Shown: positions 2 to 55,730 of the stretch, one piece after another
Layout of the letters: the number at the start of each line of letters is the position of its first letter
Numbering within the stretch: the first letter of the stretch is position 1
Assembly (NCBI GenBank): GCA_963737155.1
Contig: CAVTRN010000002.1
Coordinates: forward strand, 1,248,001 to 1,312,000
From: Nitrospirota bacterium
GTDB taxonomy: Bacteria > Nitrospirota > UBA9217
Direction: 5' to 3'
DNA length: 64,000 nucleotides
Program-made: the position numbers and the translations under genes
The notes under the pieces: model-generated
What the model was told of the DNA's origin: nothing
What the model saw: only the letters and a program-made list of their open reading frames with translations
The model's database searches: none

Positions 2-784
2 GTGCGCACCTTTGTTCAGCCTGGAGACGAGGTCGTTTCGGCTGACCCGTCCTTCGTGGTCTATAAAATAATCACCCAAGCCGCTGGCGGGACGAATGTA
101 ATCGTACCGTGCAAGGATATGCGCCATGATCTCGATGCCATGGCGGAGTGCATCACGGTCAGGACGAAAATCGTGTTTATTGCCAACCCGAACAATCCGA
201 CAGGCACCATGAACACTAAAGCCGAGATGAGCCGGTTTCTGGAACGTGTGCCCGCCCATGTGATCGTGGCTGTCGATGAGGCATACTTCGAGTATGTGAC
301 CCATGCCGATTACCCTGATTCACTGGATTACCTGAAGGACGGTAAGAACATCCTGGCACTGAGGACTTTCTCCAAAATTTACGGGCTCGCGGGGTTGCGC
401 ATCGGCTATGGCATCACAACTGCGGAGATTGGGGAACTGCTGAACAAAGTGAGACAACCCTTTAACACCAATTCGCTGGCACAGGTGGCCGCGCTCGCAG
501 CACTTGCGGACCGGAAGCACGTTGAGAAATCGATCGCCATTAACAATGAAGGGAAGCAATATCTATATCAATCTTTCGGACAGCTCGGCCTCTCCTTTAT
601 CCCTACAGAGACGAATTTTATTCTCTTTGAAACAGCGCTGGATGCAAAGGATGTTTATACGGCCCTTCTGAAACAGGGCGTGATCATCCGGCAGATGGGC
701 GGGAAAAGGCTCAGGGTTACTATAGGGCTTCCGGAAGAGAATAAACGGTTTGTAGCGGAGTTGGAGAAGGTTGTAAAAGCATAG
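2..784 (+). CDS. hisC: Histidinol-phosphate aminotransferase (5' truncated by the window edge)
   Basis: Class II PLP aminotransferase motifs IANPNNPTG, VDEAY and RTFSKIYGLAGLRIGY; precedes aro genes. Confidence 0.93.
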   Translation: MRTFVQPGDEVVSADPSFVVYKIITQAAGGTNVIVPCKDMRHDLDAMAECITVRTKIVFIANPNNPTGTMNTKAEMSRFLERVPAHVIVAVDEAYFEYVTHADYPDSLDYLKDGKNILALRTFSKIYGLAGLRIGYGITTAEIGELLNKVRQPFNTNSLAQVAALAALADRKHVEKSIAINNEGKQYLYQSFGQLGLSFIPTETNFILFETALDAKDVYTALLKQGVIIRQMGGKRLRVTIGLPEENKRFVAELEKVVKA

Positions 785-8481: not shown

Positions 8482-8632
8482 TGTACTGAAGGCCGGGAAG
8501 TGAAAGCCGGATAACGCGGTGAATCATTCATCAGCTAGTCATCTGTTCAGCGCATGCACTGTTGTTTGGATCCTGTAGTGAGAACTCTGAACATTGAACT
8601 GGCACTCTATCGTTCTTTTAGGAGGGTATTGC

Positions 8633-8917
8633 ATGACGAAGGCGGAGTTGGTGGATAAAATAGCCGAAAAGAAGCCTGGTTTGACAAGGAAGCAAGTTGA
8701 AGTTGTCGTGAATACTGTGCTTGACGGAATTAAAGACGCTCTTTCCAGGGAAGACAAGGTCGAGATTCGGGGATTCGGAAGTTTCCGAATTCGTTTCCGC
8801 CGAGCTAAGGAAGGCAGGAACCCCAAGACCGGCGAGACCGTTCAGGTTCCTCCAAAAAAAGTTCCGTTCTTCAAGGCTGGAAAGGAAATGCGGGAAATGG
8901 TGGATGGAAAAGCATAA
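8633..8917 (+). CDS. ihfB: Integration host factor beta / HU-family DNA-binding protein
   Basis: MTKAELV, EIRGFGSF, GRNPKTG; GGAGG RBS; follows rpsA-sppA. Confidence 0.85.
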   Translation: MTKAELVDKIAEKKPGLTRKQVEVVVNTVLDGIKDALSREDKVEIRGFGSFRIRFRRAKEGRNPKTGETVQVPPKKVPFFKAGKEMREMVDGKA

Positions 8918-9862: not shown

Positions 9863-9926
9863 CAAGATATAGTCTGTTTGTTACCACAAAAAGACTTCGT
9901 GAATGCTCCCGCAACCAAAGATAAGG

Positions 9927-11928
9927 CTATTGATTGGGGCTTCCAACAAGAAGATTCCCAGAGGATTGTCTGTCTCTTGGAAGAAGCAGTGTCACTTGCT
10001 TCGCGATATTCGGACGAAGCAAAATGTAATTACCAATTGTATCCGCAGCGTGCGAGTCTGCGTGTTCCTTGGCGCCGCAGCGCGGACAGAAAAATGTTTC
10101 CCCATTGCGCATACTGGCATCGACCAGGGAATGGACGGTACAGCAAGAGGATGTGTGGTAGCTTGGGATAACTATCTCCGGGATACCATCCCATTGCAGT
10201 TTATCCGACGCTCTTCGTATATACTGTCCTTTTGAACCGTTATTGATCATCTTGTTAAAGGTTCGGCCCTTGTAGCCTGGATTGTTTTTCTCCCTGGCAA
10301 GGATAGAAAGATCTTCCCGTACGATTGCCGCATGGTACTTCCTTGCAAGAATTGCTTCCTGGTTGGACAGGTACCCGAACCACGATTTTTTAACCCCCGC
10401 GATTTTCTTATAGAGGGACAAGCGTTTTTTCTTCATCTCGACGAGGTGATGAAGCAGCCGGAAGAACTTTTTATGGATATGCCGTATATAGGGGTCACCA
10501 AGATCCTGTCCCTCGGCAAATTGCTCCCGTTCGTCCAGCCCCAGGTATCCACAAATGATGCCTTTAAGCTTGTTCAGATTATTGTAGCCGGTGTCTATCT
10601 GCGACTTCAGCTTTTCGATACGTTTGCAGGAATCATTGATGTTCCGGAGAAAACCGCGGCCGTTGAAGCGGATGCGTTCCACGACGTTGTCATTGGGATG
10701 GCTGTAATTTTTCAGATACTCGAGAGCCTCTCCCCGGGTAAACTCGCTGATCCGCTTAAGTTTCTTCTCATCGATCTGATCATCTATCCTTATCACGGAA
10801 AGGCTGGCGGTATTGACCATGCCAAAGTCACGCCCGATGATATGCGTAAGAGTGCCGATATCGGCCGTCCCGGCCGGCTTGGAAATGATTGCCCGGACCA
10901 GGACCGAATCAGGGTTAATGACCAGGGAAAGCGAGGATACCGACGAAAGCTTGTCAAATCGTTTGAGCGTCCGTGCGGACATGACCACCGGTATCCGAAC
11001 AGGTTTCCCGTGCGGAGCCGGGTTGGATATTTCGAGAAAATGATAATATTTGCGGTTCGTTCTGTCTACCAGAAGCCTGGCGATATTGTCCATCCGGGCC
11101 ACAGGGTCCGAGTCGTTCCGGATGACCCGGTAATCCAGGTTGATCTGGCAGGCAAAACGGTCGTCACTGCCGAAGACGGGCTTGAGGCTTGCCGTATTTC
11201 GCAAGGCACTCCCTGTGAATGGCGCGGACGATCATTGCTTCATTTCCGGTGAGCCCCTTGCTGCTTTTCCGTATGACAACCTGCCTGACCAAGTCGATGG
11301 TCTTCCCGTATCCGTAATTTTTTATAAAACAGTCCTGAAATACCCAGCAGCTTGCTGCTGGGATGAAAAGGACATCCTGGCGAAGCCAGGATAAGTCTTC
11401 AGCTTCTTTGTTGTGCTTTTTTAAGGTTTCAAGTTCCGATGCCCCGCAGCTTGCTGCGGGGTAATTCACTTTACGTTCAAGAGATTCAAGGATACTTGCT
11501 GTAACCTTGTCCTGGATCGTTTCAGGAATGCTCAGGTACTGCCTTTTTGCGGGGTCCTTTTCCTCTGTTTTTGCGGCACAGTTTAGAAGCCTGCCGTAAA
11601 GACGCTTGAAGTATTTTTGTTCCACTTGGGCGATGGCGGGAGGGACGGCGAGACGCGCTTTTTCCACATATGCTTTGTTGAAACCAATCTCCATGTTTTT
11701 CTGGAGAGCGGTCAGAACAGCATGGATGTCCTCGCCGTTTCTTGTGCTTGCGAGAGGTTCGGGAAGGAACGCCGCATCCACAAACGAATTCGCAGCGGCA
11801 AGAAACTTTCTGCGAATAACCAGGAGATCGCCCATCTTGCCGGCCGTCAGCATGCCAGTGTCCAGCGTGGTTTTTCCGCTGGGAATGGAGCGCCTGAACA
11901 CATTTTTATCCCCTTTGCCGTAGGCCAT
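9927..11928 (-). pseudogene. tnpB: Long TnpB-like RuvC nuclease (about 616 aa reconstructed), split by a 7-bp duplication and carrying a 144-bp insertion
   Basis: RuvC-I GRDFG, RuvC-II REDL, Zn ribbon CCTVH...CPRC, RuvC-III HADSHAA; the two ORFs join as YGKP-VFGSDD when one copy of the GGCTTG-A-GGCTTG repeat (11179-11191) is removed; ATG overlaps the tnpA stop (TAATG). Confidence 0.85.
11326..11469 (+). mobile_element. 144-bp non-autonomous IS200/IS605-type mini-element (PATE-like) nested in tnpB
   Basis: Begins after TTAT; left hairpin CCCAGCAGCTTGCTGCTGGG framed by GTCCT/AGGAC; right hairpin CCCCGCAGCTTGCTGCGGGG followed by TAATTCAC; no target duplication; removal restores ERK-IKNY. Confidence 0.8.
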
Positions 11929-12323
11929 TAATTTCCTTGCCCTTCAAGGTATTTTTGTATGACTTCAAGCGGCGCTCCGCCAGCGGTAACAACAAAGTAG
12001 CTTGCCGCCCAAAACTTTTCCTTCCACAATTTTTCTTTGATGCCGGGAAATTCTTTTTTGAGCAAACGGGATGTAACGGTTTTCAGGGAATTGATAAGAC
12101 GGCACAAATTGAATTCCGGCGGAGCGGACAACAGGATATGTATATGGTCAGGTTCACCGTTTGCTTCCACGATTTTTGCCTTGAAATCCGTGGCGATATC
12201 TCCTGCTATTTCCAAACACCGGCGAAGTACGGGTTCCGTAAGCACCTTTCTGCGATATGCAACCACTAGAACCAAGTGGTAGTTCAGACTAAAAACACTA
12301 TGATGTTAGTAAGTTAATTCCAT
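11928..12323 (-). pseudogene. tnpA: IS200-type Y1 HUH transposase with a premature stop at codon 6
   Basis: Reads MELTY*HHSVFSLNYHLVLVVAYRRKVL; HUH motif DHIHIL, LKTVTSR, FWAASYF, catalytic Tyr in IQKYLEGQ; TAA at 12306-12308. Confidence 0.88.
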
Positions 12324-12330
12324 TCAACCA

Positions 12331-12359
12331 AACATAGCATCCTCTGATGGAAATGTCAA
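12331..12359 (-). promoter_or_regulatory. Sigma70-type promoter of tnpA inside the IS left end
   Basis: TTGACA-17 nt-TATGTT with extended -10 TG, 7 nt before the ATG. Confidence 0.6.
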
Positions 12360-12543
12360 CTGTTTTTCAATCGACTTCCCAATTCATCCCGCAACCAATA
12401 CGTAGTTTGGATGGGGTGTTCTTGGACAGATGATAAATAAATAGGCGTAAAAGATGAATCATGGTGAAACGGGAGGACATTTGCCTTATAATAGTTCATC
12501 GGCGCGCTTAAGAGATTGACGGGGCGAGCAAGGGAGGCCGAAC

Positions 12544-13185
12544 ATAACTGAATATTTTGACGTTCTAGACTGTAGGGGTAAGAAAACCGGGGAAATCATT
12601 CCGCGCGATGAGGCGCACCGAAACGGCACATGGCATGGAGCCTTTCATTGTCTCCTCTTCTCCCAGCGCGGCGGTCGGGCTTATGGCCTGTTCCAGAAGC
12701 GGTCCCTGTCTAAAAAAATTGCACCGGGAAAGTTTGACGTAAGCGTGGGCGGTCATTATTCAGCAGGGGAGGATGCAGCAGTCGCCGGGCCACGGGAGAT
12801 ACAAGAAGAGCTCGGTATTGACGTTCGTTTCAGCGACCTTCTGTCCGTTGGTCGTAGGATCCTTATTTATTGTTTTACCCCTGGTTTAATGGAGTATGAA
12901 TTCCAGGACGTGTTTCTATTGCATCACGACATTCAGCCGAAGCAGTTCACGCTTCAGCGTGAGGAACTTGATGGAACAATTGAGTTGGACGTGGAGCAGG
13001 GCATAGAACTGTTCTCGGGCAAAATACTCCGCGCCCAAGTCCATTTTACAAAAACTGGTGGCGATACGGTCCCGATTTCAATTACGGTTGATGACTTCGT
13101 ACCCTGCCTCGATAACTACTATTTGAAATTACTCCTGCTCGTACGGCGATATATGAATGCTGATCGGGAACATTTGCTGATCTGA
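12544..13185 (+). CDS. NUDIX hydrolase, IPP-isomerase-like; probable ATA start
   Basis: Open frame from ATA 12544 (after GGGAGG): EYFDVLD...RDEAHRNGTWH...QKRS...GGHYSAGE...REIQEELG; in-frame TGA at 12517 upstream. Confidence 0.8.
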   Translation: MTEYFDVLDCRGKKTGEIIPRDEAHRNGTWHGAFHCLLFSQRGGRAYGLFQKRSLSKKIAPGKFDVSVGGHYSAGEDAAVAGPREIQEELGIDVRFSDLLSVGRRILIYCFTPGLMEYEFQDVFLLHHDIQPKQFTLQREELDGTIELDVEQGIELFSGKILRAQVHFTKTGGDTVPISITVDDFVPCLDNYYLKLLLLVRRYMNADREHLLI

Positions 13186-55323: not shown

Positions 55324-55730
55324 TTGCAAACAATGCTCCTGCACAAGGACAGACTAAAACGTATCCGCGTTGTGAAAATGGAGGAAAACTACGCGAGCGA
55401 GACTTGTTGCATACAAAATGAAAGACAAAAGTCCGGCCGCGTGTATCACGGAATCTATATTTGCAAACAATGCGGTGCTATAATCAACGCCGACGAGAAC
55501 GGAACAATCAACATCAAAAGGGACCTCCCGGATCAAATAAGAGTCTTCCGGAGTAGTGGCTAAGATCAACTGTTTTGCCTGGAGAATAACCAGGCCCTCA
55601 ATGCAGGTCACAAACCGGAGACATGACAAACATCTCTGCCCCATCCGCGAACAGAATCTGTGGTGACTCTCACCAGCAACATATTTTGATTTGGAAGTCC
55701 TCGGTTTTTCTGGATGGGGAGGATGTGAAT
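55324..55730 (+). mobile_element. tnpB: IS605/IS1341 remnant: tnpB C-terminus plus degenerate right end
   Basis: EENYASETC...GIYICKQCGAIINADENGTINI; GGAGTAGTGGC; terminal GAAGTCCTCGG...TGGGGAGGATGTGAA. Confidence 0.7.

Follow-up and report, generated by a model that had tools for sequence, protein, structure and literature searches.

A 64,000-nucleotide (nt) stretch of a Nitrospirota bacterium genome (GenBank assembly GCA_963737155.1, contig CAVTRN010000002.1, forward-strand positions 1,248,001 to 1,312,000), which we call the window, carries on the minus strand of positions 9899-12432 a single element of the IS200/IS605 type, in which a Y1 transposase gene, tnpA, is coupled by a TAATG overlap to a TnpB-like gene. 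We think it likely, with good confidence, that this is a decayed copy of a transposon that pairs a "peel-and-paste" tnpA with an unusually long TnpB-type RuvC nuclease of 616 amino acids (aa), which would work by an RNA-guided mechanism. The gene family to which the nuclease belongs is a long form of TnpB, rare and poorly annotated. Judged by fold, catalytic residues and genomic context its membership in TnpB holds; judged by curated sequence models it fails.

In the window the element appears as three consecutive open reading frames (ORFs): the Y1 transposase gene (Pfam Y1_Tnp, E 5e-36), a 254-aa ORF without a Pfam match (ORF A, 11164-11928), and a 425-aa ORF (ORF B, 9927-11204) whose sole Pfam match is the Cas12f1-like_TNB zinc ribbon (E 1.3e-7). 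At 11926-11930 the TAA of tnpA and the ATG of ORF A overlap. An initial annotation of this DNA had proposed that the two downstream ORFs form one 616-aa gene once a 7-bp duplication and a 144-bp insert are removed, and a search of the element against the window's own genome (4.84 Mb, 2 contigs; coordinates prefixed G000 below) supplied the natural counterpart of that reconstruction. Two further copies of the element were found, along with many matches to an internal piece of ~150 bp. Copy 2 (G000:C2:538246-540624) aligns colinearly with the window copy, differs from it in the TnpB-like gene by exactly those two indels and no others, carries 48 substitutions in 2384 aligned bases, and has an uninterrupted ORF (protein P0001) of exactly 616 aa. 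The duplication, the insert and the repaired length are all borne out, as is the TAATG coupling. Since the 144-bp insert reads in frame and adds 48 extra codons, the frame break is due to the 7-bp duplication only.

The copies are decayed in different ways. The window tnpA has a premature TAA at codon 6, and the copy 2 tnpA has the same TAA, ATA in place of ATG, and a 2-bp deletion. Copy 3 (G000:C2:812613-814294) has TCA at codon 6 and an intact tnpA of 131 aa; its nuclease gene has lost 702 bp internally relative to copy 2 and gained 1 bp near its end. No copy has both genes intact, but one intact tnpA and one intact nuclease gene exist in the genome. The window copy is a pseudogene in a decayed element, dead for tnpA and nuclease alike. 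Because copy 2 keeps the 616-aa gene and copy 3 keeps tnpA, the element family could nonetheless work in trans in this genome. The last 232 nt of the window copy, the length compared, are identical to those of copy 2, and since the putative RNA-coding end thus equals that of the copy with the intact nuclease gene, the window copy may still supply guide RNA.

The boundaries of the element are set by independent insertions. We aligned seven of them, three in the window's genome and four in contigs of metagenome-assembled genomes from Nitrospirota or Thermodesulfobacteriota, and their likeness begins right after TTTAT and stops at ...GGGAGCATTCAC, so that in the window the left end (LE) begins after TTTAT at 12432 and the right end (RE) finishes ...ATTCAC at 9899, coinciding with the ends of the IS200/IS605 element as the initial annotation had drawn it. 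The same TTTAT|C junction recurs in five more metagenome insertions, which brings the listed TTTAT rows to 12; two of these are the same site, and apart from TTTAT the flanks show no relation to one another. The orthologous left flank of a same-genus genome can be aligned through TTTAT and diverges beyond it, which assigns TTTAT to the target and not to the element. No exact empty site for the element was obtained in 30 related genomes, where only the LE-side flank is conserved, ending at TTTAT. Both ends share an imperfect palindrome, CCCCA(A/T)(T/C)CAA...TTGGTTGCGGG, and such a palindrome at both ends is the classic IS200/IS605 layout. Folded as DNA, the LE and RE hairpins give z about 0 and are not marked out by energy alone; the case for them rests on conservation at both ends and on covariation. 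A related species of the same genus (G001) carries a related element in several copies, at 72-73% nucleotide identity (e.g. C8:224946-225662, C2:527180-527731 and C3:113853-114384), whose likeness to the window begins at most 2 bases from the right-end boundary (query 598-600 vs boundary 599/600).

A TnpB-type protein is indicated by the predicted fold and the catalytic residues. An AlphaFold2 (AF2) model of the 616-aa protein, built with 67 homologs, reached pLDDT 84 and pTM 0.74, and Foldseek against PDB returned 71 matches at E<=0.001, of which the 46 listed (ranks 1-50) are all Cas12, TnpB, TranC or Fanzor. The leaders are AsCas12f (E 2.3e-10, template-modelling (TM) score 0.59 per target), Cas12m2, ISFba1 TnpB and ISDra2 TnpB (TM 0.52); full-length alignments cover about 615 columns, with sequence identities of 9-14% for all matches considered, Cas12f and TnpB alike. 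The domain layout, which we read from the secondary structure of the model and give in Table 1, follows the TnpB order as predicted: a wedge strand, an enlarged recognition (REC) lobe, a wedge barrel, RuvC-I, RuvC-II, TNB and RuvC-III. All three RuvC acidic motifs named in the initial annotation, GRDFG (D317, 10827-10829), REDL (E488, 10314-10316) and HAD (D574, 10056-10058), are present in ORF B together with the atypical CxxH...CxxC, and D317, E488 and D574 are invariant in all 67 aligned homologs. The long helical segment noted between RuvC-I and RuvC-II proves to be family-wide: among the 67 aligned members RuvC-I and RuvC-II stand 169-185 aa apart, against 87 aa in ISDra2 TnpB as its structure paper gives the residues (PMC10097598), and RuvC-II and RuvC-III stand 84-91 aa apart.

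At the level of sequence the resemblance is confined to the far end of the protein. PF07282 (TNB) is the only Pfam domain detected in the 616-aa protein (31.6 bits vs a cut-off of 26.3), with no match to OrfB_IS605 or HTH_OrfB among the Pfam models. The family profile matched PDB sequences only at profile positions 526-586, where the hits are Cas12f and TnpB at E about 1e-6; in this TNB/RuvC-III stretch the best PDB sequence matches are Cas12f (E about 8e-7), and likeness to known TnpB is limited to the last ~60-125 residues. Because only that stretch aligns, we judged a joint phylogeny with canonical TnpB unreliable. The divergence from canonical TnpB that had been proposed is therefore real, the protein being far off in sequence and below the NCBIfam cut-off. 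"Cas12-sized", on the other hand, was an overstatement, as 616 aa matches only the small Cas12 types and canonical TnpBs of the same genome reach 449-500 aa. Taken as a whole, the initial interpretation is supported in part, and "new OMEGA clade" stays a candidate label.

The long form is not peculiar to this genome. A word-seeded search gave 164 homologs at E<=1e-3, mostly of 590-645 aa and with query coverage of 96-100%, which their sources name "hypothetical protein" or "transposase"; named hosts include Microvirga, Agrobacterium, Paracoccus, Sinorhizobium, Pararhizobium, Celeribacter and Halomonas. A profile search of 1.84 billion cluster representatives returned 149 at E<=1e-30, 256 at E<=1e-10 and 2667 at E<=1e-3, and of the 150 representatives listed, 41 match near full length in a single stretch (569-705 aa), whereas the others are fragments or partial. 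By these searches the family appears small, rare and sharply set apart, at ~600 aa. No relative was found in a plasmid collection (tblastn) or among viral contigs. An ESM Atlas search gave TNB-bearing "transposase" clusters of 528-601 aa, which we record as leads only.

We collected 92 related loci, 21 from species genomes and 71 from metagenomes. In 48 of them the N-terminus is preserved and 500 nt or more of preceding sequence is available. Of these 48, 20 have a Y1 tnpA just upstream of the gene, co-oriented in 14 and divergent in 6, and tnpA adjacency and the LE/RE architecture persist in the family down to 27-30% identity. The relatives without tnpA form units of 2.0-2.1 kb whose ends are of the same type, with TTTAT, TTCAT or CTGAT at the left flank and a right end of ...GAAGCC-hairpin-GGGAG-NN-TCAC, and such units occur at differing sites within or between genomes, which points to mobility. 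A k-mer scan for at least three spaced repeats, applied to the window and to 97 loci (26 + 71; about 290-430 kb), turned up no CRISPR-like array; such a scan would miss poorly conserved repeats or arrays past the 3-4-kb flanks, and within its reach the initial description of a transposon without a CRISPR array stands.

The 3' end of the element carries a conserved structure that is a plausible omega-RNA, whose transcription we infer. In 12 of 16 diverse elements the folded last 125 nt are more stable than dinucleotide shuffles at z<=-2.7, a level reached by 5 of 32 coding control windows from the same genes, and all 16 share one order of modules: hairpin P0, an invariant GUGA(C/G)A, stem-loop P2, an invariant GAAGC, right-end hairpin P3, 4-6 nt, and an invariant TCAC. 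P2 is usually closed by CUUCC/GGAAG, and TCAC is complementary to GUGA. In seven length-matched sequences from distant hosts, 96.4% of the cells of P3 are paired and 5 of 8 pairs have changed on both sides (0 of 500 shuffles). For the window's own subfamily (11 sequences) RNAalifold gave 43 pairs with 97.2% of cells paired, against 34-45% for slid partners, and 11 pairs with compensatory changes, a number that 0 of 500 shuffles equalled. These changes fall on P2 (8 of 14 pairs) and P0 (3 of 9), both upstream of the TnpA-type hairpin and partly within codons of the disordered tail, and covariation in this position points to selection on RNA. A strict form of the 3' motif was found in 42 of 60 further metagenome loci. 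The module and covariation results come from per-sequence module folds, a length-matched subset and a subfamily alignment, which replaced a plain MAFFT alignment of the 16 diverse 3' ends, where misalignment of the variable stems left RNAalifold with just 5 pairs. No Rfam family matches the 3' element; the single Rfam match, to the NiCo riboswitch (E 0.35, 20 bits vs a gathering score of 37), we took as chance.

If the family works as other TnpBs do, transcription of the last ~100-125 nt of the element would yield a structured omega-RNA that continues at its 3' end past ...TCAC into the flank. The nuclease would load this RNA, recognise TTTAT (TTCAT in some relatives) beside a matching sequence, and cut transposon-free sites, as the ISDra2 and ISGst TnpBs do. 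TTTAT would then be the transposon-associated motif (TAM) of the nuclease, and the flank beyond the right end its guide. A guide beyond the right end is the mode of action described for ISDra2 and other TnpBs (PMC10097598, PMC10691335), and TTTAT is reported as the experimentally shown TAM of ISGst2 TnpB2, with TTCAT that of ISGst5 IscB (10.1101/2023.03.14.532601).

Set beside known systems, the element is most like those encoding ISDra2/ISGst2-type TnpBs. It shares with them a Y1 tnpA partner, a subterminal hairpin at each end, and insertion without duplication on the 3' side of a pentanucleotide, the pentanucleotide being the very one reported for ISGst2 TnpB2; with ISDra2-type TnpB it further shares the D-E-D triad and a structured RNA-like element that overlaps the 3' end of the gene and stops at the right end, and the secondary structure of the model fits the domain order of wedge, REC, wedge, RuvC, TNB, RuvC and disordered tail. 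The ISDra2 structure paper describes a REC at residues 13-116 and catalytic D191, E278 and D361; the zinc finger there is of the C4 type and the C-terminal domain is disordered (PMC10097598). Against those values our protein has 616 aa where ISDra2 TnpB has 408, a helical REC of ~170 aa instead of 104, 171 aa instead of 87 between the RuvC-I Asp and the RuvC-II Glu (D191-E278 in ISDra2), and a zinc site that is C-H-C-C or degenerate instead of C4, with the extra length lying mainly in REC, in the wedge and in an addition of ~85 aa between RuvC-I and RuvC-II.

Among the Cas12 proteins, Cas12f (AsCas12f, PDB 8j3r) is the best structural match overall, but unlike Cas12f the 616-aa protein lies in a transposon with tnpA and is about 200 aa longer, and no CRISPR array was found near any of the members examined. 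Cas12m, Cas12n and Cas12j are of similar length and also carry helical mass beyond the TnpB core, and Cas12m2 and RdCas12n are among the structural matches; those types are CRISPR-associated, however, whereas here the extra helices sit in REC and between RuvC-I and RuvC-II of a transposon protein, and the TM scores are low (0.26-0.38). Fanzor proteins resemble the family in being about 600 aa long, transposon-borne and of TnpB fold, with SpuFz and mimivirus Fanzor2 among the Foldseek matches, yet the family occurs in bacteria, with IS200/IS605 ends and a Y1 tnpA, and is no closer in similarity to Fanzor than to the Cas12 types. From TldR, the nuclease-dead TnpB-like repressors, it is set apart by a triad that is intact in 67 of 67.

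A bolder proposal, which we find possible but doubtful, is that this is a long-form TnpB lineage in which an enlarged REC and a REC2-like helix pair of ~85 aa evolved in a still-mobile IS200/IS605 element, as Cas12-style accretion before and independently of CRISPR, together with an omega-RNA of ~100-125 nt and a TTTAT TAM. REC2 insertions, it is argued in the ISDra2 structure paper, allow Cas12 to read the guide-target duplex out to its far end (PMC10097598), and as a hypothesis by analogy the long helices of our protein may act like such a REC2.

Several results weigh against a TnpB-type, RNA-guided reading. NCBIfam NF040570 (TnpB), whose cut-off is 100 bits, scores the protein at 48.8 bits and aligns only at profile positions 261-383, whereas three canonical TnpBs encoded in this genome (449-500 aa), used as controls, score 215-229 bits over the whole profile; in profile-profile comparison (hhalign) canonical TnpBs and the family align over ~49 columns only, at 80-86% probability. 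The N-terminal region, which the initial annotation did not recognise, now models as wedge and helical lobe in TnpB order, and its 305 residues modelled alone give pLDDT 83.5, but the lobe by itself matches mainly Cas12 N-terminal lobes and does so weakly (best RdCas12n, E 9.6e-4, TM 0.26-0.30; others E>=0.03; TM 0.26-0.35 overall). The zinc ribbon is degenerate: positions 546 and 567 are Cys in 48 of 67 homologs and Asp in 19, and C564 is Cys in only 28 of 67; the equal Cys/Asp counts at 546 and 567 may reflect a paired replacement of the zinc site. No Y1 tnpA lies within 700 nt upstream in 28 of the 48 eligible loci, and the strict 3' motif is absent from 18 of the 60 metagenome loci. P3 is also explicable as a DNA signal for TnpA, so its covariation alone is no proof of an RNA, and the GUGA/UCAC pairing, being invariant, offers no covariation evidence. 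For every family member, finally, omega-RNA and nuclease activity are predictions made from sequence.

Other explanations can be set against this reading. The family might descend from a small CRISPR-associated Cas12 (for instance V-F, V-M, V-N or V-U) whose array was lost and which IS200/IS605 ends then recaptured, its size reflecting Cas12 ancestry rather than growth inside transposons. The best structural matches, Cas12f, Cas12m and Cas12n rather than TnpB, would fit such an origin, as would the RuvC-III motif: a survey of TnpB diversity gives typical TnpBs as 300-450 aa with DRDXN and a "derived" clade with NADXN, and the HADxH of the family is nearer the latter; the same survey reports both growth and secondary shrinking of effectors (PMC10691335). 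The Foldseek differences between Cas12f and TnpB are small, however, at an identity of 9-14% for all; no CRISPR-like array turned up in the window or the 97 loci scanned; and tnpA adjacency with LE/RE architecture persists in the family at identities as low as 27-30%. On balance we consider a Cas12 origin very unlikely.

It is very unlikely, in our view, that the family is a TnpB derivative that has ceased to be an RNA-guided nuclease and become a regulator or transposition accessory, the 3' structure serving TnpA only as a signal in the DNA. What defines nuclease-dead TnpB derivatives in the literature is loss of the triad (PMC10705468, PMC13622181), which here is invariant in 67 of 67, and the compensatory changes concentrate in P2 and P0, upstream of the TnpA-type hairpin and partly in tail codons; the degenerate zinc ribbon, the predicted status of nuclease activity, the equally good DNA-level explanation of P3 covariation and the decay of the window copy and copy 3 are what such a derivative would have in its favour. 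As for ORF A and ORF B being separate genes and the 616-aa protein an artefact of reconstruction, the two distinct ORFs of the window invite the thought, but it is refuted by the natural 616-aa paralog in the genome, by a homolog of 616 aa at 95% identity, and by dozens of intact homologs of 580-645 aa that cover both halves, while a single AF2 model spans both halves at pTM 0.74; we give it practically no chance. A decayed IS200/IS605 copy with a long TnpB-type nuclease is thus the reading we prefer.

Should the long form prove to be an active RNA-guided nuclease, the editor toolbox would gain a sequence-distant branch. The family would also offer a natural test of the idea, put forward in the ISDra2 structure paper (PMC10097598), that Cas12 needed REC2 insertions or dimerisation for longer guides, as a comparable enlargement is seen here in a transposon without CRISPR. 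Curated TnpB models miss about 80% of the protein's length and RefSeq-type sources say "hypothetical protein", and because of this elements of the kind are under-counted. Large surveys of TnpB diversity already mention branches of varied length, so for a specialist the surprise should be moderate; a literature search on long TnpB forms gave only general remarks in one PNAS survey (PMC10691335), which is no proof that the family is unpublished.

Table 1. Features of the element (window coordinates) and predicted domains of the 616-aa protein (residue numbers).
Feature	Position	Strand	Basis or remark
TTTAT, target pentanucleotide beside the left end, putative TAM	12433-12437	-	precedes conserved left end in 12 rows
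Left end (LE), with imperfect subterminal hairpin at ~12388-12416 (CCCCATCCAA..TTGGTTGCGGG)	12324-12432	-	kept across 7 elements
tnpA, IS200-type Y1 (HUH) transposase pseudogene; TAA codon 6 at 12306-12308	11928-12323	-	Pfam
5' part of long TnpB-like gene (wedge strand and helical REC)	11192-11928	-	colinear with P0001 residues 1-~199
144-bp non-autonomous IS200-type repeat (MITE/PATE-like), 3' of plus-strand TTTAT	11326-11469	+	absent from copy 2
CAAGCCT 7-bp duplication, frame-shifting	11185-11191	-	alignment with copy 2
3' part of TnpB-like gene: wedge barrel, RuvC, TNB, disordered C-terminal tail	9927-11184	-	Pfam, AF2, Foldseek
TNB zinc ribbon	10062-10151	-	within 3' part of TnpB-like gene
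Candidate omega-RNA scaffold: P0, GUGACA, P2, GGAAGC, P3, ...AUUCAC	9899-10023	-	overlaps gene 3' end; covariation
Right-end hairpin P3	9908-9939	-	inside candidate omega-RNA scaffold
Flank just past right end, putative guide segment of the window copy's RNA	9883-9898	-	element homology ends exactly at 9899
Wedge strand	residues 10-21		AF2 model
Helical REC	residues 29-196		AF2 model
Wedge strands	residues 210-301		AF2 model
RuvC-I	D317		AF2 model/alignment
Two very long helices	residues 374-412 and 429-480		AF2 model
RuvC-II	E488		AF2 model/alignment
TNB	residues 543-572		AF2 model
RuvC-III	D574		AF2 model/alignment
Disordered tail	residues 593-613		AF2 model

The 144-bp insert that interrupts the window gene is itself a mobile element, a repeat of ~150 bp resembling a miniature inverted-repeat transposable element (MITE) or palindrome-associated transposable element (PATE). 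Counting the insert, the genome contains at least 23 near-identical copies of the repeat, with scores taken for 40 of 72 candidates; the 22 others are full-length at 91-100% identity, and the repeat bears perfect terminal palindromes (CCCCGCAGCAAGCTGCGGGG and CCCAGCAGCAAGCTGCTGGG). Both of its ends are shared with an IS200-like element of ~570 bp that encodes a 140-aa Y1 TnpA, a TnpA type represented in the genome by eight uninterrupted open frames of 147 residues and two interrupted copies, and from this comparison the repeat appears to be a deletion derivative of the ~570-bp element. Read on the plus strand, the insert lies directly 3' of TTTAT and finishes ...ATTCAC, and copy 2 preserves the empty site, with no target duplication; a filled and an empty site that differ without target duplication are a hallmark of this transposon family. 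The repeat and the tnpA-TnpB element have the same TTTAT target and the same ...T(T/C)AC end: one IS200/IS605 relative has inserted into another at a common target, and the locus is a case of layered transposon decay. Another MITE copy lies at G000:C2:814387-814537, ~90 bp outside the left end of copy 3, and by this adjacency these elements cluster.

In all, the genome has 20 TNB and 22 Y1_Tnp matches. A second Cas12f1-like TNB match within the window, at ~55324-55515 on the plus strand (G000:C2:1303324-1303515; 43.3 bits), falls in an 82-aa frame that is probably a fragment of a canonical TnpB. The flank at 12433-13100 is 82-83% identical in two same-genus genomes, and the plus-strand ORF beside the left end, at 12745-13185, contains GGHYSAGEDAAVAGPREIQEELGI, which resembles a Nudix-box motif. 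On the other side, ~1 kb without a long ORF separates the right end from a plus-strand ORF of 107 aa at 8594-8917 (MTKAELVDKIAEK...), whose sequence resembles a DNA-binding protein of the HU/IHF type.

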